Below are positions 7,963 through 63,920 of a stretch of 64,000 nucleotides of DNA, one piece after another. Every line of letters begins with the position of its first letter. The first letter of the stretch is position 1. Below the pieces are notes generated by a model. It ran no database searches, was not told the DNA's origin, and saw only the letters and a program-made list of their open reading frames with translations. The translations under genes and the position numbers were made by a program. The DNA is from Deltaproteobacteria bacterium (GTDB lineage: Bacteria; Myxococcota_A; Polyangia; DRWM01; JAAZOP01), in NCBI GenBank assembly GCA_016218765.1, contig JACRCZ010000085.1, forward strand, positions 871 through 64,870. Direction: 5' to 3'.

Positions 7963-7990
7963 ACCATCGACGCTGTTGCTGAAATCGGAG

Positions 7991-8062
7991 AGCGGGAGAC
8001 GGGATTTGAACCCGCGACGTCCACCTTGGCAAGGTGGCACTCTACCACTGAGTTACTCCCGC
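7991..8062 (-). tRNA. tRNA-Gly (anticodon GCC), CCA not encoded
   Basis: The reverse complement folds as a cloverleaf: acceptor GCGGGAG/CTCCCGC, anticodon stem CCACC/GGTGG with loop TTGCCAA, T arm GCGGG-TTCAAAT-CCCGT. Length 72 nt. Confidence 0.9.
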
Positions 8063-33091: not shown

Positions 33092-33484
33092 CTACGTGCG
33101 GCCGACACAGGTGTCGGGCAGGGGCGGAGGACCTCGACGTGGGAGCGGGGGAGGCACGCCGCGCAGCCGCTCGCGGATGCGGATCCGCTCCCAGGGATCG
33201 GTCCCGATGAACCGGACACCCATCCCCCGCTCCTGCGGATCGGTACGGCGGCGCCAGGACGATACGCGAGAGACCTCGCCGAAGATGGTCCACTCGTCCG
33301 CACCATCGCCGATGCGGAAGGACACGACGACCGGCGTGCCCTGCTCCACCAGGACCCGCGCCGGCAGGAAGCAGCCACGCGGACTCAGGTCCGCCGTTTC
33401 CAGCCTGACCGGCTCGTCCCAGTCCGCGCACACCAGCTCGACGGGAACCCGCACCGCCCTCCGAACCTCGTGCCGTACGTACAT
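33092..33484 (-). CDS. PilZ domain protein
   Basis: Carries RHEVRRAVR and DLSPRGCF PilZ-type motifs. I prefer the start at MYVRHE because an AGGAGG SD lies 8 nt upstream of it. The track start at 33502 would translate that SD. Confidence 0.7.
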   Translation of the reverse strand: MYVRHEVRRAVRVPVELVCADWDEPVRLETADLSPRGCFLPARVLVEQGTPVVVSFRIGDGADEWTIFGEVSRVSSWRRRTDPQERGMGVRFIGTDPWERIRIRERLRGVPPPLPRRGPPPLPDTCVGRT

Positions 33485-33510
33485 CCCGTGGCCCTCCTTC
33501 ATAAGAGCAT

Positions 33511-33642: not shown

Positions 33643-34191
33643 CTACGGGACGGCAGCGCCGGCGGCGGCCATCGCGGCAGCCGTGAGCGCCTCGGTGATC
33701 TTCGTGCTGAAGCACATCGCCCAGTCGGCTCCACCGGCGCCGCAGGGGGTGTCCTTGCAGGCGTCCATGGCCTTGGTCATGGCGTCGCCGCCGAAGCCCG
33801 GCATGTCCTTCCAGGCGTCGCACGTCATCTTGAAGCCTTCCTTCATGGGGCCGATCATCGCCTCAACCGCCTCGGGCGGAACGCCTTCGCTGGCGCAGGC
33901 GATCATCTTGTCCATGTAGGCCTGGCAGGCGTCGCCGCCGCCGGCCGCGGGCTCGGTCGGAGCAGCCGGCTCGGTCGGAGCAGCCGGCTCGGTCGGGGCC
34001 GCGGGCTCGGTCGGGGCCGCGGGCTCGGTCGGAGCGGCCGGCTCGGTCGGCGTGGTCGCCGGCTCGGTCGGGGCCGCGGGCTCGGTCGGGGTCGCAGGCG
34101 CCGCCGGGGCTTCCTCGGTCTTCTTCTTCTTGCAGGCCGAGATTGCCAACAGTGCCGCCAACGCGATGACCAACAGATGCTTCCAGTTCAT
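33643..34191 (-). CDS. lipoprotein with PTEPAA tandem repeats and Cys-rich C-terminal domain
   Basis: Signal/lipobox MNWKHLLVIALAALLAISAC. About 8 copies of (A)PTEPA(A). The C-terminal domain has 7 Cys. Confidence 0.7.
   Translation of the reverse strand: MNWKHLLVIALAALLAISACKKKKTEEAPAAPATPTEPAAPTEPATTPTEPAAPTEPAAPTEPAAPTEPAAPTEPAAPTEPAAGGGDACQAYMDKMIACASEGVPPEAVEAMIGPMKEGFKMTCDAWKDMPGFGGDAMTKAMDACKDTPCGAGGADWAMCFSTKITEALTAAAMAAAGAAVP
33943..34095. repeat. 18-bp tandem repeat (about 8 units) encoding PTEPAA
   Basis: GGCTCGGTCGGRGCNGCS units read directly, in frame within CDS 33643-34191. Confidence 0.85.
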
Positions 34192-34393
34192 GACCTTTCC
34201 TCCTCCATTCCTTTCCTTGGGGTTCGCACCCCACCCTCGTTCGCGTCTCCGGAACTTGGTCCCACTGCCGGCAAACGCTGGGCGGCATCTAAGCGCGAAG
34301 CGGACCCGTTGTCAACAGGTCCCGGGAGCATCGATGGTGTCTCTGGACACCGGGGGGTCAGGCGAAGAGCGCGGCGGGTGGCCGCTTGGCGGG

Positions 34394-34442
34394 AGTCGGC
34401 AGTCCAGAGTCGACAGTCGAGAGTCCAGAGTCGAGAGTTCAG
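34394..34442 (+). repeat. heptamer tandem array AGTCSAS x7 overlapping the stop codon of the TCY-repeat gene
   Basis: The units are AGTCGGC, AGTCCAG, AGTCGAC, AGTCGAG, AGTCCAG, AGTCGAG and AGTTCAG. It has the same unit and orientation as the array at 18046-18080. Confidence 0.85.
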
Positions 34443-35197
34443 TCGCCGAGCAGACGACCGATCTCCTCGATCGTTTCTTGTGCGCGGCGTCGCAGCGCCG
34501 TCGCCTCGATGGCGGCCGCGACGGGTTTCTCCGACTCGTCGTCCGGTGCGACGCCACGGTAGCAAGTCGGGGGAGGAGGGGGCTCGACGGCGTCGTAGCA
34601 CGTCGGCGCCGGCATCTCGTAGCAGGTGGGAGGAGGAGGAGGAGGGGGAGGAGGGGGCGGGGGTGGGCCCACCGCGTAGCAGGTCGGCGGAGGAGGAGGG
34701 GGCGGCGGAGGAGGGGGCGGTTCGGGCGGCGGCTCGTCGCCGCTGTCGGGATCGGTCCCCTGGATCTCGACCTTGGCGGCGTTCCCGGCGGAGGTGGACA
34801 GCCCGAAGGCGCGGACGAGGCGTGTCCGGTCCTCGCGCAGGGTCTCGCGCGCCCGCTCGGCGACGACGGGCGGGGCTTCGGTCGCCAGGTGTCGCCACGC
34901 CTCGACTCGTGCGGCGGCCCGTTCCAGGAGGCGGCGGGCGCCGTCCAGCCGGTCGGCCTCGGCCTTGGTGGCGGCGGCGTCCGGAGCGGCGGTCCGTGCC
35001 TGGGCCGCGGCCGGAGCGCCGGTTCCGGCGAGCAAACCGACGGTCAGCCAGAAGGCGGCGCGGACCCGTCCCGGCGGCGTGCCCGCGACGGGCGCGGGCG
35101 AGGGTCCGCGGAGGCGGCGTCCGAGTCCCAGGGCGAGCAGGGCCGCAGCGGCGACGATGGCGAGCGCGATCAGGATCCGTTCGACGATGCCGGGCAT
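34439..35197 (-). CDS. hypothetical envelope protein with poly-Pro tracts and four TCY motifs
   Basis: N-terminal TM (ILIALAIVAAAALLALGLG) followed by a signal-peptide-like segment ending AAAQA. The C-terminal region is P12-TCY-AVG-P13-TCY-EMPAP-TCY-DAVE-P5-TCY (Cys173, 192, 200, 212). Confidence 0.6.
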   Translation of the reverse strand: MPGIVERILIALAIVAAAALLALGLGRRLRGPSPAPVAGTPPGRVRAAFWLTVGLLAGTGAPAAAQARTAAPDAAATKAEADRLDGARRLLERAAARVEAWRHLATEAPPVVAERARETLREDRTRLVRAFGLSTSAGNAAKVEIQGTDPDSGDEPPPEPPPPPPPPPPPPTCYAVGPPPPPPPPPPPPPTCYEMPAPTCYDAVEPPPPPTCYRGVAPDDESEKPVAAAIEATALRRRAQETIEEIGRLLGD

Positions 35198-35261
35198 CGT
35201 TGCACCTCTCCCGCGACCGGCATCCTACGGATGGGGTCGGACTTCCGGTCTGGCACGAGGT

Positions 35262-36320
35262 TCACCGCCAGGGGAACCGGCCGTGGGCCGCGGCGAGCGG
35301 CTCGAGGCGTGCGACGTCGGCGAAGCAGGCTTCGGAGGCGGCGCGGCAGCCGGAGCGGCAGGTCGTGCGGTGGGGGCAGTCGCGGCACTCGACCGGCAGG
35401 GCGGCGCAGAAGGCGCGATAGGGACGGCTGCGGAGCATGCGGCGCAGGGTCGTTCGGCGGAGGTCGCCCAGGACGGTTGGCGAATGGTTGCACGGGCGGA
35501 CCTCGCCCCGCGGGGACAGCGCCAGGTAGGTGCGGTCGCTGCCGGCGCCGCAGAAGCCGACGCCCAGCCCCTCGGTCTCGGCGGGGTCCACCACGCAGGG
35601 CGGAATCGGCACGGAGACCGAGACGGGGAGTCCGCCGCACCGCCGCTGCTCGCGAAGCACCCGCAGCGCGGCGACGAGCTGCGGCGGGTCGGGCAGCAGC
35701 TCCGCCGCGGTCGCGTGCGCGACCCCGCCGGGATTGAAGCGCAGGAACATGAGGCCGTCGGCGCCCAGCGCGAGCGCCAGCCGCGCGACGTCCTCGGCCC
35801 GCCCGATGTTGCGCCGCATGGCGACGAACGCGGCGACGACGTGGGCTCCGGCCTTCTTGGCCGCGCCGATCGCCCGCACCGCCCCCTCGAAGGCCCCGGC
35901 CGCCCCGGCCAGCGCGTCGTGCTCGTCCGCCGACGGAGCCAGGAGCGGGATCTCGAACAGCCGGCATCCGGCGGCGACGAGCGAGCGGGCACGATCCGCG
36001 TCGAGGCGCCGGCCGTTGGTGATGAGGTTCGTCGCCAGGCCGGCGCCGGTGACGGCGGAGACCAGCGTCTCCAGATCGTCCCGCAGCAGAGGCTCGCCGC
36101 CGGTGAAGCTGATCTGCCGCGGCCGGTACCGGCCGCGCTCCGCCAGCACGCGGCGCAGCAGATCGAGCGCCTCCGCGGTCGGCAGGTCGGCCGGGGAAAT
36201 CCCTCCGTCGCACTTCCACACGTTGTAGCAGTAGACGCAGCGGTTGTTGCAGCGCGCCGTGACCTCGAACAGGACCACGGTCACGCGCAGCGGGTCGGGT
36301 CGGAGAAGGCGTTCGAGCAT
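35262..36320 (-). CDS. radical SAM enzyme with SPASM domain (anSME/peptide-maturase-like architecture)
   Basis: CNNRCVYC (CxxxCxxC) at residues 24-31. GGEPLL. C-terminal SPASM pattern FCGAG...PC and CRDCPHRTTCRSGC (Cx2Cx5Cx3C) plus a distal Cys. Confidence 0.85.
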   Translation of the reverse strand: MLERLLRPDPLRVTVVLFEVTARCNNRCVYCYNVWKCDGGISPADLPTAEALDLLRRVLAERGRYRPRQISFTGGEPLLRDDLETLVSAVTGAGLATNLITNGRRLDADRARSLVAAGCRLFEIPLLAPSADEHDALAGAAGAFEGAVRAIGAAKKAGAHVVAAFVAMRRNIGRAEDVARLALALGADGLMFLRFNPGGVAHATAAELLPDPPQLVAALRVLREQRRCGGLPVSVSVPIPPCVVDPAETEGLGVGFCGAGSDRTYLALSPRGEVRPCNHSPTVLGDLRRTTLRRMLRSRPYRAFCAALPVECRDCPHRTTCRSGCRAASEACFADVARLEPLAAAHGRFPWR

Positions 36321-36330
36321 CGTCTTGCAC

Positions 36331-37305
36331 TCAGCCGAAGTGCCGGAACCCGGTGCGCGGCAGGGCGTGTTCGGACCCGTCGCGTTCGACGCCGAGCACC
36401 GTGCCGGGTGGATGGTGGGAGACGACTTCGCCGACGCGGTAGAGGCCGATACCGGCCTCGGCGGCGAGGCGCGAGAGGAGGGGGAGGTTTGCGGGCGGGA
36501 CGGTCGCGGCCAGCTCGTAGTCCTCGCCGCCTCCGAGGGCGAGCGCGCGGCCTGCGCCGTCGGGGTCGCGGGGGTGTCCGAAGGCGACGGGCAGTCGGTG
36601 GAGGTCGAGGGCGACGGCGACGCCGGAGGCGTCGGCGAGGTGGCCGAGGTCCTGGGCGAGGCCGTCGGAGATGTCGATGGCGGCGGATGCGGTGCGGGCG
36701 AGGACGGCGGCGGCGTCGAGGCGGAAGGGCGGGTGGAGGTAGCGGGCGCGGAGGCTGCGAGCTTCGTGGGCCTGGGCGGGTCCGGTTCCGGCGGCGGTGC
36801 GTCCGGCGGCGGATGCGCCGACGGGGCCGGTGAGGAAGATGAGGTCGCCGGCGCGGGCGCCGGAGCGGCGGAGCGGGGCGGCCTGCGTCTCGCCGGCGAC
36901 GGTGAGGGAGAGGACGAGGTCGCGGCCGCAGGCCAGGTTGCCGCCCACGACGACGGCACCGGCTTCGGCCGCGGCGTCCGCGAACCCCTTGTGGAGGGTC
37001 TCGACCCATGCGGCATCGGTCCCGGGAGGCAGGACGAGGGAGAGCAGGACCCAGCGCGGGCGGCCGCCCATGGCGGCGATGTCGGAGACGTTGGCGGCGA
37101 CGGCGCGGCGCGCGACGTCGGCGGGCGGTTCGGTGACCGGGTCGAAGTGCACGCCGGCGACGAGCGCGTCGGTGGTGAGGAGCAGGCGCCGTCCGCCGCC
37201 CAGGTGGATCGCGGCGGCGTCGTCGCCGATGCCGATCTCGACGGCGGCGTCGGCGCGGGCAACGGCGAGCCGGATGCGCTCGAGCAGTTCGAACTCGTCG
37301 ATCAC
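36331..37305 (-). CDS. thiL: thiamine-monophosphate kinase
   Basis: EFELLERI, IGIGDDAAAI and TTDALVAGVHF are typical ThiL/AIR-synthase-related N-terminal motifs. Length 324 aa. 4-nt overlap with the upstream kinase gene. Confidence 0.85.
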   Translation of the reverse strand: MIDEFELLERIRLAVARADAAVEIGIGDDAAAIHLGGGRRLLLTTDALVAGVHFDPVTEPPADVARRAVAANVSDIAAMGGRPRWVLLSLVLPPGTDAAWVETLHKGFADAAAEAGAVVVGGNLACGRDLVLSLTVAGETQAAPLRRSGARAGDLIFLTGPVGASAAGRTAAGTGPAQAHEARSLRARYLHPPFRLDAAAVLARTASAAIDISDGLAQDLGHLADASGVAVALDLHRLPVAFGHPRDPDGAGRALALGGGEDYELAATVPPANLPLLSRLAAEAGIGLYRVGEVVSHHPPGTVLGVERDGSEHALPRTGFRHFG

Positions 37306-38702
37306 GGCGGCGCTCCGGTCGGGATCACGGCGGAGGGGGGGACGGGCAGGAGCAGGTGGAAGGCCGAGCCCTTCCCCGGCTCGCTCTCGACCTCGACGCT
37401 GCCGCCGTGCGCTTCGGCGAACTGGCGGACGAGGGCGAGGCCCAGGCCCAGGCCGCCGTGGGAGCGGGTGGCCGAGCCGTCCTCCTGGAAGAAGGCGTCG
37501 AAGATGCGGTCCAGGCTGTTCTGGGGGATGCCCGGTCCGGCGTCGCGGACGGTGACGCGGAGGAAGCGCCGCAGGGGCGCGAGCAGGACGAAGCCGATCG
37601 AGGCCTCGCCGTCGGCGCGCGGCTCCGTCAGGCCCAGCTCGATGGCGACGGCGCCGCCCGGGGGCGAGAACTTGAGCGCGTTATCGACGAGGTGCAGGAG
37701 GGCCTTCTCGATGAGGTCGGGGTCGACGGGGACGAGGGGCAGCGCCGGGGCGGGGCGCATGTCGAGCCGCACGTCGCGCCGGCCCGACTGGGCGACGGCC
37801 TTCTCGACGGCGCGGGCGCAGAGCCCGGCGACGTCGGTGGGCTCGCGGCGGAGCTCCAGGCGCCGGGCGTCGAGGGTGGAGATGTCGAGCACGGCGGAGA
37901 TCAGGCGCAGGAGGTGCTCGCCCTTCTCCAGGATGGTGCCGATGAACTTGCGTTGCTCCTCGGCGAGGGGCCCGGCGAGGCCCTGGGCGAGCATCTCGCT
38001 GTAGCCGATGATCGAGGTGAGCGGGGTGCGGAGCTCGTGGCTGACGGTGGCGAGGAAGTTGGACTTGAGCCGATCCAGCTCCTTGAGCCGGTCGGCGGTT
38101 TCCTGGAGCCGTTTGTTCTTGACGGCGATCTCGCGATAGGACTCCTCGATGGTTGCCAGGTGGGTTTCGGAGGTGAGGGTGGCGCGCTGCCCGCTGTGCA
38201 GGATGAGGTCGAGCACGCGTTGGAAGGCGTGGACGATGCGGTCGAGGGTGTCGTGGCGGACGCGGCGCAGCGAGGCGGATCGTTCGGAGATCGTCGCGGG
38301 GTCGATCTCGGTGTCGAGGCGCATGAGGGTCGAGGGGAGGCGCGTGGCGTCGGCGGGGAGGTAGGGTCCGTAGACGACCTTCCCCATGGCGTCGCCCTCG
38401 AAGAGCACGGGGGCGGCGAGGTAGGCGCAGCCGGCGAAGCAGCGTACGGCGAGCGGCTCCGGGCCCTGGGCGGTGAAGCGGGCGAGCTGGGCGCGGAACT
38501 GGTTGCACTGCCGGCGTCCTTCGCCGAACTCCCGCACGTAGGTGCAGAACGCCTCCTCCTCGACCGACTCGGCGAGCAGCGATCCGTCCGCGGCGAAGAC
38601 GCGCAATCCGATGCCGAACAGCTCGCGGAAGGCGGTGCAGACGTCGTGGAGTGCCGAGGGTTCGACGAGGTCGGCGAGGCCGAGGGTGCGTTCGAGCTGC
38701 AC
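37302..38702 (-). CDS. sensor histidine kinase with N-terminal PocR-like sensory domain
   Basis: The N-terminal region has conserved Cys pattern (FCTYVR...RRQC...RCFAGCAYLAAP) as in PocR domains. H-box SHELRTPLTSIIGYSE. HATPase GLGLGLALV. Confidence 0.85.
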   Translation of the reverse strand: MQLERTLGLADLVEPSALHDVCTAFRELFGIGLRVFAADGSLLAESVEEEAFCTYVREFGEGRRQCNQFRAQLARFTAQGPEPLAVRCFAGCAYLAAPVLFEGDAMGKVVYGPYLPADATRLPSTLMRLDTEIDPATISERSASLRRVRHDTLDRIVHAFQRVLDLILHSGQRATLTSETHLATIEESYREIAVKNKRLQETADRLKELDRLKSNFLATVSHELRTPLTSIIGYSEMLAQGLAGPLAEEQRKFIGTILEKGEHLLRLISAVLDISTLDARRLELRREPTDVAGLCARAVEKAVAQSGRRDVRLDMRPAPALPLVPVDPDLIEKALLHLVDNALKFSPPGGAVAIELGLTEPRADGEASIGFVLLAPLRRFLRVTVRDAGPGIPQNSLDRIFDAFFQEDGSATRSHGGLGLGLALVRQFAEAHGGSVEVESEPGKGSAFHLLLPVPPSAVIPTGAPP

Positions 38703-38705
38703 GAG

Positions 38706-39482
38706 CTACTTCTCTCCGTCGGGCGGCGGCGGCCAGAGGCGTTCGCCGTCGCGGCCCGTGGCGAGGTGTTTGGGCAGGCCGAGCTGGCTGGCGAGCTTGA
38801 GGAGGAGCTGTCGCGAATCGACGCCGAAGCGTTCCTCGAACTTGTGCTCGGCCTGCAGGTGGGCCCAGGTCAGCCGGAGCAGGCCGAGGAAGGTCTCGAT
38901 GACGCCCTTGCCCTCGGTGGCAACGGCCTTGAAGACGGGCTCGCGTCCGGCGCGGGCCATGCTGTCGAGCTCCTGGTCGGAGCGGATGTCCGGCAGGTCG
39001 CGCTTGTTGAACTGTATGACGAGCGAGATGGTGCGTGCGTCGAGGCCGTTGGCGCGGAGGTTCTCGGCGAGGTTGCGGAACGACTCGGCGTTGGATTCGA
39101 TCTCGGAGATCCTGCTGTCGGCGATGAAGGCGACGCCGTCGGCGGCCTGGAGGACGAGCCGCCGGGTGGCGTCGTGGATCACCTGGCCCGGCACGGTGTA
39201 GAGCTTGAGCTTGATCTTGAGCCCGCTCCCGACCTCGACGCGCAGCGGCAGGAGATCGAAGAACAGGGTCCGGTCGTCGCGCGTTTCGAGCGACAGGAGG
39301 CGGCCGGCGGTGCCTTCGGGCATGACGCGGTGCAGGGCCTGCAGGTTCGTCGTCTTTCCGGAGAGCGCGGGTCCGTAGTAGACGAACTTGAGTCCGATCT
39401 CCCGATGCGCGATGTCGACCTGCACGGGTCGGAACTCCTTCGGAGCGGGCCTCCGCGCCCCCCGGCGCGGGCCACTCAGCAT
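38706..39482 (-). CDS. MglA-family small Ras-like GTPase with N- and C-terminal extensions
   Basis: Collinear with M. xanthus MglA: KFVYYGPALSGKTTNLQ, DRTLFFD, LYTVPGQV, GVAFIADS, QFNKRDL. The longer track ORF (to 41090) runs across the island boundary and is rejected. Confidence 0.85.
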   Translation of the reverse strand: MLSGPRRGARRPAPKEFRPVQVDIAHREIGLKFVYYGPALSGKTTNLQALHRVMPEGTAGRLLSLETRDDRTLFFDLLPLRVEVGSGLKIKLKLYTVPGQVIHDATRRLVLQAADGVAFIADSRISEIESNAESFRNLAENLRANGLDARTISLVIQFNKRDLPDIRSDQELDSMARAGREPVFKAVATEGKGVIETFLGLLRLTWAHLQAEHKFEERFGVDSRQLLLKLASQLGLPKHLATGRDGERLWPPPPDGEK

Positions 39483-40483: not shown

Positions 40484-41869
40484 TCAGCCGTCCCAGGGCC
40501 AGGAGGACCAGCGGTCGGGAAGACCGTCCGGGCCGACCGCCAGCGTCTTCGCCCCCCTCGACGAGGTGAGAAACGGGAGCAAACCCGCATCGGCGAAGGT
40601 CCGGGCCTGGGGAGGCCCCTGCACCCCCCGGAGGGCAAGGGCCAGGGCGGTTGTCAGGTCGTCGTGGATCCGGCCGCCGACCGGCGCACCGTATTCGATC
40701 CGGCCCGACGGCTTGGCCCGTGCCTCGTAGAAACGCAACTCGTCGAGTAGGTCCCGGTTCGGCGGCAGGATGATCCCGCCGTTCTCGATCGCCACGGCAA
40801 GCGCCGTGACGATCTCCGCCTTCGTCGCCGTGGTGAAGGTGACCCCCTCGACCCAGCACCCTTGGCGGCGGAGCAACTCGACCAGCACCGCTCCCTGGCC
40901 GGTCCCATCGACGACCACCTTTGCGCCTCCGTGGAGCCGCGCAAGTTCGGCAACGCGCTGGACCTGTTCCACGAAGTCGCGTCCCCGGATGTCTTCGACG
41001 TGAACGCATCGCAGCGGCTTGCCCGTCGCATCGATGATCGCTACGCCGGAACGATCGCGCTTCAACGCGGGGTCCCAGCCGATCACGCAACGGCGATGCG
41101 CCCCGGCTTCAACTTGTTCGCCACCCGTGCAACGGACCACGTGGTCCCATCGGAAGACGGCATCGGTCTGATCGAGGAATTCGCCGCCGTACTCGACTCG
41201 GAATTGCCGGTCGGTGATTTCTGCGCGCTGGCCTTCCACGTATCCGCGATCGATGTAGGGGTTGTCCGCGCTTCGGATGATGAAGCTGGAAACCCTCGCA
41301 TCGGTCCCGCTCCGGCCCCGCTCGAACATGCGGTGGAACAGCGATCCCTTCGTGCTGGGAGTCGATGCGAGCACGAGTTCGCCGCCCACGTCGGCGAGTA
41401 GCGGCATGATGGCTTCCTCGATCACGGTGTCCGGAACGTACGCGGCTTCATCGACGACCACGCGATCGGCGGCGTGACCTCGAAGATGCTTCCCGCCCTC
41501 GTGCGCGGCCCGGACGAAGATCAGCACGCCGCCCGCGAGCCGCAGTTCGGGGAAGGGCGACGAAAACTCCGCTTCGATCAACCCGCCGAGGGGAGATTGC
41601 CGGATGAGGCGGGCCACCGCGGCGATCAGCAACTTCGCCTGATCGATGCCGGGGGCGACGAGAAGCTGCCGGAACGGTCGATGCGCATGCACGGCCTTCG
41701 CGGCATGGAACGCGATTTCGATCGCGAGCGAGATCGTTTTCCCCGATCGACGACCCCCGACGAGAGTTTTCGTCGGGTGCCGATCGAGGAGATACCGGGC
41801 CTGTCCGGCGTGCGGGACGATCCCGAGCACGGTCTCTGCGAAGACGGCGGCGTTATCGAGTCGGTCCAT
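40484..41869 (-). CDS. terL: phage terminase large subunit
   Basis: Walker A-like GGRRSGKT. Walker B VVVDEAAY. ASTP coupling motif. C-terminal RNase-H-like nuclease region (VIGWDPA...SGVAIID...HDDLTTALALA). Length 461 aa. Confidence 0.85.
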   Translation of the reverse strand: MDRLDNAAVFAETVLGIVPHAGQARYLLDRHPTKTLVGGRRSGKTISLAIEIAFHAAKAVHAHRPFRQLLVAPGIDQAKLLIAAVARLIRQSPLGGLIEAEFSSPFPELRLAGGVLIFVRAAHEGGKHLRGHAADRVVVDEAAYVPDTVIEEAIMPLLADVGGELVLASTPSTKGSLFHRMFERGRSGTDARVSSFIIRSADNPYIDRGYVEGQRAEITDRQFRVEYGGEFLDQTDAVFRWDHVVRCTGGEQVEAGAHRRCVIGWDPALKRDRSGVAIIDATGKPLRCVHVEDIRGRDFVEQVQRVAELARLHGGAKVVVDGTGQGAVLVELLRRQGCWVEGVTFTTATKAEIVTALAVAIENGGIILPPNRDLLDELRFYEARAKPSGRIEYGAPVGGRIHDDLTTALALALRGVQGPPQARTFADAGLLPFLTSSRGAKTLAVGPDGLPDRWSSWPWDG

Positions 41870-49025: not shown

Positions 49026-49100
<75 letters not shown>

Positions 49101-61288: not shown

Positions 61289-61933
61289 GTGAGCCGGATC
61301 GTACAGCGCGTGATCGTCCTCGGGCTCGCGGCGCTCGGCGCCGGGTGTCCTCCGGCGCCCGTCGTGCCGGACGGCGGGTCCGCCGTGCCTGTCCCGGCCG
61401 GCGGCGGGGGACCGGGGCTCGGGGAGGAGGCGGACGCCGTCTGGGAGGAGATCGAGGCGCTGTGGGAGGAGACGGGGGGGTACCGTGCCTTCGAGGTGCC
61501 GGAGGGGACGTTGGCGCGGACGCGCGGGCGGATCACTGGGCTGCTGGTGCGATTCGGGACGATCGACCGCGTGGCCGGCGAGGCGCCGGCGCTGGTGGAG
61601 CTGGTGAGCATCGAGTTCGACGAGCGGCTGGAGCTGCCGCCGGAGGGGGCGGTCTGCGTCACGGAGGACGGGGCGCGGACGGCGGCGGGCCGGGCGTACG
61701 AGCGGCTGGCGGAGCGGGTGGAGACGGTGGAGGCGCTGGCGCGGGCGGGGTACGAGAATCCATGGCTGCGGGAGCACGTCCTGTCGCGGATGGCCGAGGA
61801 CGTGCGGGCGGTGCGGGCGGCGATGGCGTCGGGGGACGGCTGGCGGTTGGAGGACGAGGCGGTGCGGGCGGTGGCGCCTGCGGTGGTGGAGGCGGTGCTG
61901 GCGCGGGTGGAGGCGGTGCTGGCGGGGCGGTAG
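61289..61933 (+). CDS. hypothetical lipoprotein
   Basis: GTG start with GGGAGGG SD 8 nt upstream. Lipobox LGLAALGAGC. Acidic helical mature part. Confidence 0.55.
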   Translation: MSRIVQRVIVLGLAALGAGCPPAPVVPDGGSAVPVPAGGGGPGLGEEADAVWEEIEALWEETGGYRAFEVPEGTLARTRGRITGLLVRFGTIDRVAGEAPALVELVSIEFDERLELPPEGAVCVTEDGARTAAGRAYERLAERVETVEALARAGYENPWLREHVLSRMAEDVRAVRAAMASGDGWRLEDEAVRAVAPAVVEAVLARVEAVLAGR

Positions 61934-61983
61934 GCGTGGGCAGCGCGGGCGGGCGGGATCCGCCGGCGTCGAGGTCATGGGGC

Positions 61984-63357
61984 GTGGCACGAATCCTGGT
62001 TGTCGACGACGAGCCCAACGTACGCAAGATGTTGCGCGCGCTGCTCACGTCGCACGGTTTCGAGCTGGACGAGGCGGCGGACGGGGAGGCGGCGCTGGCG
62101 CGGGTGCGGGAGGAGCCGCCGGACTTCGTGCTGGCGGACGTGCGCATGCCGAAGATGGACGGCATCACGTTGTCGCGGGAGATCGCGGCGCTCGACCTGC
62201 CCACGACGGTGATCGTGATGAGCGCGTACGGCACGGTGGAAACGGCGATCGAGGCGATGCGGGCGGGGGCGTACGACTACATCATGAAGCCGTTCCGGAC
62301 CGACGAGGTGCTGCTGACGCTGCGCAAGGCGGAGGAGCGGGAGCAGCTGCGGCGGGAGAACCGCGAGCTGCGGCGGCGGGTGTCGTCGCAGGCGGTCGAG
62401 CCGCCGATCGAGTTCTCGGGCCTGTTGGCGCGCTCGGCGGCGATGCAGCGGGTCTTCAAGACCGTCGCCAAGCTGGCCGACGTGAAGACCACGGTGCTCC
62501 TGAGCGGGGAGAGCGGCACGGGCAAGGAGCTGGTGGCGCGGGCTCTGCACGAGCGTTCGCTGCGGGCGGCGCGGCCGTTCGTGGCGGTGAACTGCGGCGC
62601 CATTCCGGAGACGCTGCTGGAGAGCGAGCTGTTCGGGTACCGCCGCGGCGCGTTCACGGGGGCCGATCGCGACAAGCGCGGATTGATCGAGGAGGCCGAC
62701 CAGGGGACGCTGTTCCTGGACGAGGTGGCGGAGATCCCGGCGTCGCTGCAGGTCAAGCTGCTGCGCGTGCTGCAGGAGGAGACGATCCGGCCGCTGGGCG
62801 ACACGGCCGACCGCAAGGTCGACGTGCGCTTCCTGGCCGCGACCGGGCGGGACCTCGCGGAGGACGTCGCCGCGGGCCGGTTCCGCGAGGATCTCTACTA
62901 CCGGCTGAACGTGCTGGCCGTCGAGCTGCCCCCGTTGCGGGCGCGCAAGGAGGATGTGTTGATCCTGGCCGAGCACTTCCTCGACCGGGAGTGCGCGAAC
63001 CTGGGCAAGCGCCGCATCGACCTCGCGCCCGACGCGCGCCGCGCGCTCCTGGACTACCCGTGGCCCGGCAACGTCCGCGAGCTGGAGAACGCGATCGAGC
63101 GGGCGGTGGTGCTGGCGGAGGGCGAGCGCATCGGGGCGAGCGACCTGCCGGGGCGGATCCTGGCGGGCCGCGACCCGATCCGCGCGTTCCTGGCGTCGGG
63201 CGAGCTGTCGGTGAAGAAGACGGAGCGTTTCGTCGAGGAGACGTTGATCCGGCGGGCGCTGGAGGAGACGGGGGGCAACCGCACGGCGGCGGCGAGGCTG
63301 CTGGAGATCAGCCACCGGGCCTTGTTGTACAAGATGAAGGAGTACGGGATCCGCTGA
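61984..63357 (+). CDS. sigma54-dependent response regulator (NtrC family)
   Basis: Receiver (ILVVDDE, LADVRMPKMDG, MSAY). AAA+ domain (GESGTGKE, GAFTGA sigma54 contact, LFLDEV, RVLQE, FREDLYYRLNV). C-terminal Fis-type HTH (NRTAAARLLEISHRALLYKM). GTG start. Confidence 0.9.
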   Translation: MARILVVDDEPNVRKMLRALLTSHGFELDEAADGEAALARVREEPPDFVLADVRMPKMDGITLSREIAALDLPTTVIVMSAYGTVETAIEAMRAGAYDYIMKPFRTDEVLLTLRKAEEREQLRRENRELRRRVSSQAVEPPIEFSGLLARSAAMQRVFKTVAKLADVKTTVLLSGESGTGKELVARALHERSLRAARPFVAVNCGAIPETLLESELFGYRRGAFTGADRDKRGLIEEADQGTLFLDEVAEIPASLQVKLLRVLQEETIRPLGDTADRKVDVRFLAATGRDLAEDVAAGRFREDLYYRLNVLAVELPPLRARKEDVLILAEHFLDRECANLGKRRIDLAPDARRALLDYPWPGNVRELENAIERAVVLAEGERIGASDLPGRILAGRDPIRAFLASGELSVKKTERFVEETLIRRALEETGGNRTAAARLLEISHRALLYKMKEYGIR

Positions 63358-63446
63358 GTGCGCGGGGCGGCGGGTGCCGGGAACAAATCGCCTCCCGGAC
63401 CGGTTCATGCTATAAGCTCGCCGGCCGCGGGCCGCTTGGAGGTTGG

Positions 63447-63920
63447 ATGGTTCGTTCTGCCGCAATCGTCCCGGTGCTCCTCGTCCTGGCGGGCTGCGCC
63501 AAGGATCTGATCCCGAACACCGAGGTCGAGAACACGCCGGACAACCGGGCCGTGATCGACTTCTGCGAGGAATACCGCATCGCGCTGGAGGCCAAGGACT
63601 TCGCGAAGATCGTGGCCTTGACGGCCGACGACTACTACGAGGACGGCGCCTCGCCGCCCGGCACGGACGACTACGATCGCGCCGGCCTGCAGGCGCGGCT
63701 GGCGGGCCGCTTCACGCGGGTCGAGGAAGTGCGCTACGACATCCGCTACCGGCGGGTGGTCTACTTCCCGGATCGGGTCGAGGTCTACTACTCGTTCTAC
63801 GGTCGTTTCCAGGTCGCCGGCGACGCGGGCGACGAGTCGCGCTGGTTCAGCGAGGTCGGCGACAACCGCCTCGTCTTGCGGCGCACGCCCGACGGCTACA
63901 AGATCCTGAGCGGTCTGTGA
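63447..63920 (+). CDS. small lipoprotein (possibly SnoaL/NTF2-like fold)
   Basis: Lipobox VLLVLAGC. GGAGG upstream. 157 aa. Confidence 0.6.
   Translation: MVRSAAIVPVLLVLAGCAKDLIPNTEVENTPDNRAVIDFCEEYRIALEAKDFAKIVALTADDYYEDGASPPGTDDYDRAGLQARLAGRFTRVEEVRYDIRYRRVVYFPDRVEVYYSFYGRFQVAGDAGDESRWFSEVGDNRLVLRRTPDGYKILSGL

Follow-up and report, generated by a model that had tools for sequence, protein, structure and literature searches.

Two adjacent genes in a 64,000-nucleotide (nt) stretch of DNA from a Deltaproteobacteria bacterium (contig JACRCZ010000085.1; hereafter the window, to whose full length all positions refer unless a locus is named) probably form an enzyme-substrate module, in which a radical S-adenosylmethionine (SAM) enzyme with a SPASM domain would modify the protein encoded next to it at short Thr-Cys-Tyr (TCY) motifs. 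The enzyme gene, which encodes 352 amino acids (aa) with the Pfam domains Radical_SAM and SPASM and is the proposed maturase, occupies 35262-36320 on the minus strand, and the gene for the proposed substrate of 252 aa, termed the partner here, occupies 34439-35197 on the same strand. The original prediction, made from the sequence of the window alone, had named the two as a candidate enzyme-substrate pair. Clade-wide adjacency of the two genes and conservation of the motif support this candidate, the modification itself being putative, and the enzyme-substrate reading appears well supported by comparative genomics.

Association of the enzyme with TCY proteins across the clade

A scan of species-representative genomes returned 80 loci, and the main count was made on the 68 loci in which the identity of the enzyme to that of the window reaches at least 36% (percent identities given with locus labels such as L001 compare the enzyme with its relatives). 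The open reading frame (ORF) directly adjacent to the enzyme on the same strand carries a Cys-Tyr dipeptide in 59/68 loci and [ST]CY in 49/68, compared with 3.0% and 0.5%, respectively, for 2,438 positions drawn at random from the same loci and put through the identical selection procedure. Cys-Tyr is 15-fold denser in the partners than in background ORFs (5.8 vs 0.38 per 1000 aa), and Tyr follows in 78 of the 82 Thr-Cys dipeptides that the partners contain. The consensus from 99 sites reads P-x-[VIAM]-T-C-Y-[EADK]-[PM]; the four sites of the window fit it, and T-C-Y is the sole feature common to the otherwise diverse partners. With a partner consensus of T-C-Y-[EADK]-P, the motif is indeed unlike the sulfatase signature CxPxR, as had been stated at the outset.

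The partner gene lies mostly upstream of the enzyme gene, usually at a distance of 6-45 nt, whereas it lies downstream in the window, which differs in this respect from most other phyla. Two or more tandem partner paralogues are encoded in many loci, and several apparent exceptions were found to hold partners as well, L063 with two of them downstream and L130 with one beside a frameshifted enzyme. As a lone TCY is found in about half of the partners and the spacing is variable where several are present, any modification is expected to be local to the triad or its immediate surroundings. An adjacent protein encoded on the same strand, exported or anchored by prediction and carrying T-C-Y-x-P, is the mark of the clade and is also found in the window pair. 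No other conserved gene was detected around the enzyme across 84 loci, and this includes genes for PqqD or a RiPP recognition element (RRE; RiPP, a peptide made on the ribosome and modified after translation), a protease or a transporter.

Where the enzyme is <36% identical, the adjacent ORF bears Cys-Tyr in 6/15 loci and [ST]CY in 4/15, and several of these look like chance or self matches. A distant subgroup (L065, L101, L109, L122, L124, L131, L132 and L134, mostly <36%) is mostly without a TCY partner and has a conserved neighbour of ~460 aa in 8 loci, mostly downstream (3 upstream, 8 downstream). This subgroup probably represents a different system.

The partner protein encoded in the window

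Enzyme and partner genes are separated by a spacer (35198-35261, minus strand) of exactly the 64 nt given in the original prediction, with the Shine-Dalgarno sequence GGGAGAGG at 35205-35212, 7 nt ahead of the partner ATG; no terminator-like site was seen on the minus strand of this spacer. Residues 1-67 of the partner (34997-35197, minus strand) constitute an N-terminal anchor or signal according to hydropathy. The transmembrane or signal-like N-terminus with AAAQA that had been described resolves into a strong hydrophobic segment at residues 8-25, an Arg-rich loop and a weaker second hydrophobic segment ending in AAAQA. A conserved helical segment with invariant columns in alignment A3 (residues 108-135, ERARETLREDRTRLVRAFG; 34793-34876, minus strand) precedes the proline-rich motif region (residues 156-214; 34556-34732, minus strand), which reads P3-E-P12-TCY-AVG-P13-TCY-EMPAP-TCY-DAVE-P5-TCY-R. 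The protein has exactly four Cys (residues 173, 192, 200 and 212) and exactly four Tyr, all within TCY, and the Pro runs beside the motifs are 12, 13 and 5 residues long; the earlier reading of the Cys and Pro residues was accurate. Four TCY arose by chance in 0 of 200,000 shuffles of the partner protein. Examples of TCY peptides that may be targets of the enzyme are PPPPTCYAVGPPP and SNAPITCYEPMIV.

The GC (guanine plus cytosine) content of the window is ~72%. The partner ORF is a real gene, because its orthologues in L001 and L002 (75% and 54% aa identity of the partner, respectively) keep all four TCY, and because substitutions pile up at third codon positions (100, vs 39 and 35 at the other positions). 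A spurious high-GC ORF was rejected on these same grounds. A further orthologue, in L137, is truncated. The enzyme is more constrained than the partner, with 82 synonymous and 27 non-synonymous codon changes vs 74 and 63.

The window partner showed no significant match to a Pfam or NCBIfam family, and a direct homology search with its 252 aa yielded no relatives, the 8000 word-sharing candidates being flooded by polyproline. An exhaustive phmmer search returned 14 weak matches, in which the true relatives were two fragments only, P0122 (C-terminal, with 2 TCY) and P0124 (N-terminal anchor), and the rest was proline-rich noise. Since polyproline defeated the direct searches, the partner was traced through its genomic context. 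A search of the whole window for [ST]CY found no other Pro-flanked gene of the TCY type; the sole further match is one SCY in a 770-aa ORF (61608-63917).

Partner types across phyla

Forty-five partners fall into one similarity cluster. Those of the Anaerolineae type have ~230 aa, a twin-arginine signal (TRRDFMK...C), often a first TCY in a Pro/Thr linker, and an invariant TCY within HVWRSNAPITCYEP. Cys and Tyr are invariant and Thr is nearly so in 22 and in 36 partners of this type, which also possess an invariant His, Trp, Arg and Asp. In the planctomycete type, the N-terminus comprises two hydrophobic segments (MPYR..TM..GPxWKRR..TM, where TM is a transmembrane segment), and there are one to five helical modules with a TCY in each. 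Both types share a domain in which the TCY are aligned (hhalign probability 98.6%, E 6e-16), and by this profile comparison they are homologous. The N-terminus of the window partner has the same two-segment layout as the planctomycete type, and its helix (residues 108-135) together with the first TCY matches the planctomycete domain with an hhalign probability of 92.4% (E 5e-7).

In an AlphaFold2 (AF2) model, a partner of the Anaerolineae type is all-helical; its first TCY is part of a disordered linker, and a loop modelled with low confidence (residues 128-139), which joins two long helices, contains the TCY. Foldseek found no fold match for this model in the PDB at E <= 0.001. Sequence prediction indicates a twin-arginine translocation (Tat)-like RRxFL signal in 27/59 partners and an N-terminal hydrophobic anchor in 46/59. 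The partner family comprises at least 389 clusters, labelled "hypothetical" or "twin-arginine translocation signal domain-containing" with one stray PaaX label. No Pfam domain was found in these clusters, and eight partners from other phyla gave no significant match to a Pfam or NCBIfam family.

Partners have 150-800 aa and carry Tat signals or membrane anchors, with the exception of those in L113 and L116, which have 75-126 aa and resemble RiPP precursors. The latter (two in tandem in L116, 7170-7883; L113, 7659-7883) adjoin the enzyme upstream in metagenome-assembled genomes (MAGs) of Anaerolineales/Anaerolineae, and combine 2-3 xCY motifs in a Pro/Thr-rich core with the conserved C-terminal helix EARxLLxEKLLxxGRFP.

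Classification of the enzyme

The enzyme belongs to the radical SAM/SPASM superfamily, as it has both CxxxCxxC and CX9-15GX4C...CX2CX5CX3C...C. Pfam scores exceed the cut-offs for PF04055 (Radical_SAM, residues 19-180, 74.7 bits) and PF13186 (SPASM, residues 263-316, 31.2 bits). The [4Fe-4S] motif C24-x3-C28-x2-C31 is followed by invariant Y32-N33-x-W35 (36228-36251, minus strand; invariant columns of alignment A1), and the translation agrees with the length of 352 aa and the motif at residues 24-31 that the original prediction had given. The SPASM region (residues 242-332; 35325-35597, minus strand) has eight conserved Cys (C242, C257, C277, C312, C315, C321, C325 and C332). Seven of them form the full signature that had been recognized earlier (C257-x14-G-x4-C277, C312-x2-C315-x5-C321-x3-C325, C332), and C242 is an additional conserved residue. 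The Cys of the cluster motif and of the SPASM region, including C242, are invariant or nearly so across 22 homologues. The AF2 model of the enzyme has a pLDDT of 92.5. Since its barrel strand begins at residue 13 and the cluster motif lies at residues 24-31, there is no N-terminal RRE, and this claim of the original prediction holds.

The NCBIfam scan did not assign the enzyme to any curated family. Its best match is PqqE (TIGR02109) with 118.9 bits vs a cut-off of 381, followed by AhbD (100 vs 500), NirJ2 (98 vs 500), GeoRSP (85 vs 400), StsB (81 vs 625) and the mycofactocin maturase (71 vs 265). AhbC (67 bits), NirJ1 (59) and NirJ (55) likewise fall short of their cut-offs of 500-650, so that no curated threshold for a heme or heme d1 radical SAM enzyme (AhbD, AhbC, NirJ, NirJ1, NirJ2) was reached. 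Membership in a clade of unrelated known function had been named as an outcome that would speak against the pair, and the scores for PqqE, AhbD, NirJ2, mycofactocin and sactipeptide maturases are all far below the cut-offs. By sequence profile as well as by fold, the closest solved structure is PqqE (PDB 6c8v, E 1e-28 over the full length, also the top Foldseek match), and SkfB, BlsE, SuiB and anSME, the anaerobic sulfatase-maturating enzyme, come next. The Foldseek neighbours (PqqE, BlsE, SkfB, SuiB, anSME) have a TMq of 0.59-0.72; such neighbours reflect generic SPASM or Twitch similarity and do not discriminate between chemistries.

At least 254 homologue clusters with E <= 1e-20 are present in the protein database. 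A few homologues, from MAGs of Myxococcota or "Deltaproteobacteria", are 70-92% identical to the enzyme, and a much larger group shows 40-47% identity, its source names including Armatimonadota, Verrucomicrobia, Pontiellaceae, Myxococcales and Polyangia. Alignments of clade members from these sources to the enzyme span 93-97% of the length, at 40-50% identity and 260-310 bits, and further members from Planctomycetota and Chloroflexota were found in the scan of species-representative genomes. The hallmark of the clade is an invariant CxxxCxxCYNxW together with eight SPASM Cys, and the window enzyme has both. Judged by these comparisons, the enzyme is a member of a large unnamed clade known from MAGs alone (of Chloroflexota, Planctomycetota, Armatimonadota, Myxococcota and other phyla).

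Nearest relatives and gene order

In the window, the TCY pair is embedded in a series of minus-strand genes. A histidine kinase with a PocR domain (37302-38702) is followed by thiL (thiamine-phosphate kinase; 36331-37305, minus strand; TIGR01379 with 278 bits vs a cut-off of 184), the upstream operon neighbour of the enzyme, 10 nt ahead of its start and outside the proposed module. Downstream of the pair are a repeat-rich lipoprotein gene (182 aa; 33643-34191, minus strand), which we regard as context, and a PilZ protein gene (33092-33502), with glmS next on the plus strand. The sub-clade of the window, i.e. the relatives with an enzyme at least 70% identical, keeps the block of PocR-domain kinase, thiL, enzyme, lipoprotein, PilZ and glmS as far as contigs reach. 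The exception is L139 and L140, two relatives without the TCY gene, in which a gene for a HEAT-repeat lipoprotein of 430 aa was inserted on the opposite strand in that slot, between the enzyme and the repeat-rich lipoprotein (L139 4161-5447, minus strand; L140 1667-2959, minus strand). Most close relatives retain the repeat-rich lipoprotein gene downstream of the enzyme, TCY gene present or not; in those without the TCY gene, the two are immediate neighbours or are separated by an inserted gene. A metagenome scan with the single enzyme sequence added one further close relative, L005.

The TCY gene is present in the window, in L001 (92%), in L137/L138 (80%), where it is cut by the contig end at ...PPPPTCYVV, and in L002 (71%). 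A lack of conservation of the gene pair elsewhere, which the original prediction had named as an outcome that would refute its proposal, was not observed: the pair is conserved at the level of the whole clade and across phyla, with the qualification that in the window's own sub-clade the TCY gene stands beside the enzyme in just 4/10 relatives.

The persistent neighbour in this sub-clade is thiL, which lies directly upstream of the enzyme in 9/10 close relatives, i.e. in all that have an upstream flank (L002 ends at a contig edge). The distance is 0-40 nt or the genes overlap by 4 nt (L003 and L004; 6001-6004 in L003), and upstream of the enzyme in close relatives the PocR-domain kinase gene overlaps thiL. 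Such linkage could mean that the enzyme works for the thiL operon, in the pathway of thiamine or of a different cofactor, and that the TCY gene is an incidental insertion. However, thiL was seen beside the enzyme in none of ~70 more distant family loci, most of which have a TCY partner, and among the radical SAM families of NCBIfam none related to thiamine is matched by the enzyme. We consider this explanation highly improbable and rejected the thiL linkage as a functional clue, as it is lineage-specific.

Other features of the window

Directly after the stop codon of the TCY gene, a 14-nt tandem repeat (GAGTCGACAGTCCA, ~3.3 copies; 34393-34438), whose period may also be read as 7 or 21 nt, lies in the 247-nt spacer preceding the lipoprotein gene. 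Past this repeat, a promoter-like TTGACA-N17-TTAGAT (~34301-34329, minus strand) was read by eye and was not reported by the scanner. The lipoprotein-like product of 33643-34191 starts with MNWKHLL...SAC-KKKK and has a C-terminal domain with six Cys, and an 18/54-nt tandem DNA repeat in its gene translates to (PTEPAA)n. A conserved P-loop protein of ~200 aa (YYGPALSGKTTNL; 38706-39308, minus strand), encoded upstream of the PocR kinase, has syntenic counterparts in L003, L005 and L057 (the latter being the L001 contig) and has no Pfam match at E <= 0.001. Further away, a terminase large-subunit ORF (40484-41869, minus strand; Pfam Terminase_6N and Terminase_6C) lies in a region at ~38-48 kb in which GC falls from ~0.74 to 0.65-0.68, and this points to a prophage or phage remnant. 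The tRNA genes noted are tRNA-Met (49026-49100) and tRNA-Gly (7990-8062).

Proposed mechanism and competing explanations

The substrate status of the partner, the timing of its modification and all chemistry are what we infer below. In the proposed mechanism, a cytoplasmic radical SAM/SPASM enzyme that lacks an RRE and holds one SAM-cleaving cluster and two auxiliary Fe-S clusters would bind the Thr-Cys-Tyr-x-Pro of the partner while it is still an exposed loop or linker. A 5'-deoxyadenosyl radical would then abstract a hydrogen within or next to the triad, and the invariant Cys would be modified ahead of export or membrane insertion of the partner. The window partner would thus present four such sites on a polyproline scaffold. 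By analogy, this logic resembles that of anSME with sulfatases or of QhpD with QhpC.

Regarding the product, our best single guess, and a tentative one, is a short-range thioether that links the sulfur of Cys to a carbon in the Thr or Tyr beside it or in another residue close by, as this has the highest base rate among Cys-directed SPASM enzymes and would account for the invariance of the two neighbours by a role as acceptors. There is also some chance, though not an even one, that the triad in Tat- or Sec-exported and membrane-anchored proteins receives a chemically new modification from an enzyme that needs neither leader nor RRE; the pair would then be the first recognized member of a two-gene protein-modification system spread over several phyla. 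Candidates for it are a cross-link of adjacent residues or a cofactor derived from Cys and Tyr, distinct from formylglycine, from sactionine and ranthionine bridges and from cross-links of the pyrroloquinoline quinone (PQQ) type.

Several points weigh against the enzyme-substrate reading or its favoured chemistry. In 6/10 sub-clade relatives (L003/L004, L005, L058, L139, L140 and L141), an intact enzyme is encoded at a locus from which the TCY gene is absent, and within 3-8 kb flanks of these loci no [ST]CY motif was found save a chance match in a 789-aa ORF of L058. The persistence of the enzyme in such loci means that no neighbouring partner gene is required. The window type is tied to the main partner family by the motif and a profile match from few sequences only (effective number of sequences, Neff, 1.4), and adjacency of genes cannot prove substrate status. 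In thioether synthases, an iron site is left open for the substrate Cys, whereas the auxiliary clusters of anSME are fully protein-ligated. The eight SPASM Cys of the enzyme would permit full ligation of both auxiliary clusters, which appears to fit thioether synthases less well.

The loci without a neighbouring TCY gene, and the fact that partners are large helical proteins and not short peptides, might also indicate that the partner is not the substrate. It could instead be a membrane-anchored scaffold, a regulator or a redox partner whose Cys-Tyr binds a metal or the enzyme, and something else would be the substrate. On the other hand, a radical SAM enzyme must reside in the cytoplasm, whereas the location predicted for the partner is extracytoplasmic. 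Moreover, the only universal feature is a five-residue linear motif in loops or linkers, often with 2-4 repeats and in tandem paralogues, a pattern typical of modification sites, and the short RiPP-like partners of L113 and L116 do exist. An accessory role of the partner is accordingly quite improbable in our assessment, and we retain the enzyme-substrate module as the probable reading.

Novelty and comparison with known systems

Newly discovered chemistries of peptides and proteins come mainly from radical SAM/SPASM enzymes. To our knowledge, the substrates in almost all known cases are short RiPP precursors, sulfatases or cofactor peptides. The clade described here is consistently tied to a new five-residue motif in large exported proteins across several phyla. 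Full-text literature searches found no published description of the system, Pfam and NCBIfam release 20 contain no model for the enzyme clade or the partner, and neither has a solved structure; the system was probably overlooked because all related sequences come from MAGs. If the proposed reading is correct, cell-envelope proteins of lineages that have hardly any cultured members would carry a new post-translational modification. The system would also provide a compact recognition tag, P-x-x-T-C-Y-x-P, with a leader-independent enzyme, of possible use in protein engineering.

Among characterized systems, anSMEs (AtsB, anSMEcpe) share most of the logic proposed here. They are radical SAM/SPASM enzymes of ~350-370 aa without an RRE that act, as the window enzyme may, on a Cys in a short linear motif of a large exported protein before folding or export, and their conserved Cys suffice to ligate two auxiliary clusters fully. 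A divergent reaction of this type would abstract the C-beta hydrogen and convert Cys via a thioaldehyde to formylglycine (-18 Da; anSME mechanism as summarised in PMC10114670), placing aldehydes on an exported protein that is not a sulfatase. The eight conserved SPASM Cys of the clade, the unstructured target Cys with Pro nearby and the rank of anSMEcpe among the top structural matches (TMq 0.69-0.70) are consistent with it. Nevertheless, the target motif of anSME is C/S-x-P/A-x-R and not T-C-Y-x-P, and the partners are helical or proline-rich proteins without a sulfatase fold; neither a sulfatase nor any other Pfam or NCBIfam domain was found in the partners tested. No anSME model is among the 25 best NCBIfam matches of the enzyme (the weakest of which has 46.7 bits), the PDB sequence of anSMEcpe matches its radical SAM core only (residues 16-171, 56.5 bits), and the invariant Thr and Tyr would be reduced to recognition elements. 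We therefore regard formylglycine formation as rather unlikely.

PqqE is the closest characterized homologue over the full length including SPASM, by sequence and by structure, and a Tyr is essential in its target; the Tyr of the triad is as invariant as the Cys. A Tyr-centred chemistry like that of PqqE or MftC could yield a cross-link or a protein-derived cofactor from Cys-Tyr or Thr-Cys-Tyr, and in many lineages the partner, then a redox protein, would leave the cell folded via Tat. A Tat signal is typical of cofactor-carrying proteins, and the invariant His, Trp, Arg and Asp of the Anaerolineae-type partners also point in this direction. In contrast, the score of the enzyme is far under the PqqE cut-off, and C242 has no counterpart in PqqE. 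The window neighbours are thiL, the TCY gene and the lipoprotein gene, with no pqqA, pqqB, pqqC or pqqD, no mft gene and no PqqD or RRE protein nearby. PqqA is a peptide of ~23 aa with Glu-x3-Tyr, whereas the partners are exported Cys-Tyr proteins of 180-800 aa. Furthermore, the extra invariant His is not conserved in the planctomycete or window types, and the window motifs lie in polyproline and not in a folded pocket. Chemistry of this kind is unlikely in our view.

QhpD, also a radical SAM/SPASM enzyme, modifies Cys of QhpC, the gamma subunit of quinohemoprotein amine dehydrogenase, in the cytoplasm ahead of export, and its substrate, as in the proposed reading, is a protein and not an antibiotic peptide. 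The differences are the lack of Cys-to-Asp/Glu pairing and of a Trp cofactor site in the present system. No qhpA, qhpB or qhpC gene was found around the pair among the window ORFs and Pfam results, and QhpD is not among the best family matches of the enzyme, a comparison made without a dedicated QhpD model.

The synthases of sactipeptides and ranthipeptides (AlbA, SkfB, CteB, PapB, StsB) are Cys-directed SPASM or Twitch maturases, of which StsB and SkfB are weak matches to the enzyme. They carry or need an RRE and act on short peptides that contain a leader, whereas the enzyme described here has no N-terminal RRE or PqqD-like domain and no conserved small neighbouring gene. Its partners are mostly large secreted or anchored proteins, and a short precursor of leader and core was encountered only in the form of the 75-126-aa partners. 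A cross-link acceptor, if any, must here lie in or beside the triad. As in the partners with several TCY, some substrates of these synthases contain repeated short Cys motifs, e.g. CX3D in PapA. A radical SAM/SPASM maturase with a neighbouring substrate is a known pattern, while the target motif and the substrate class are new.

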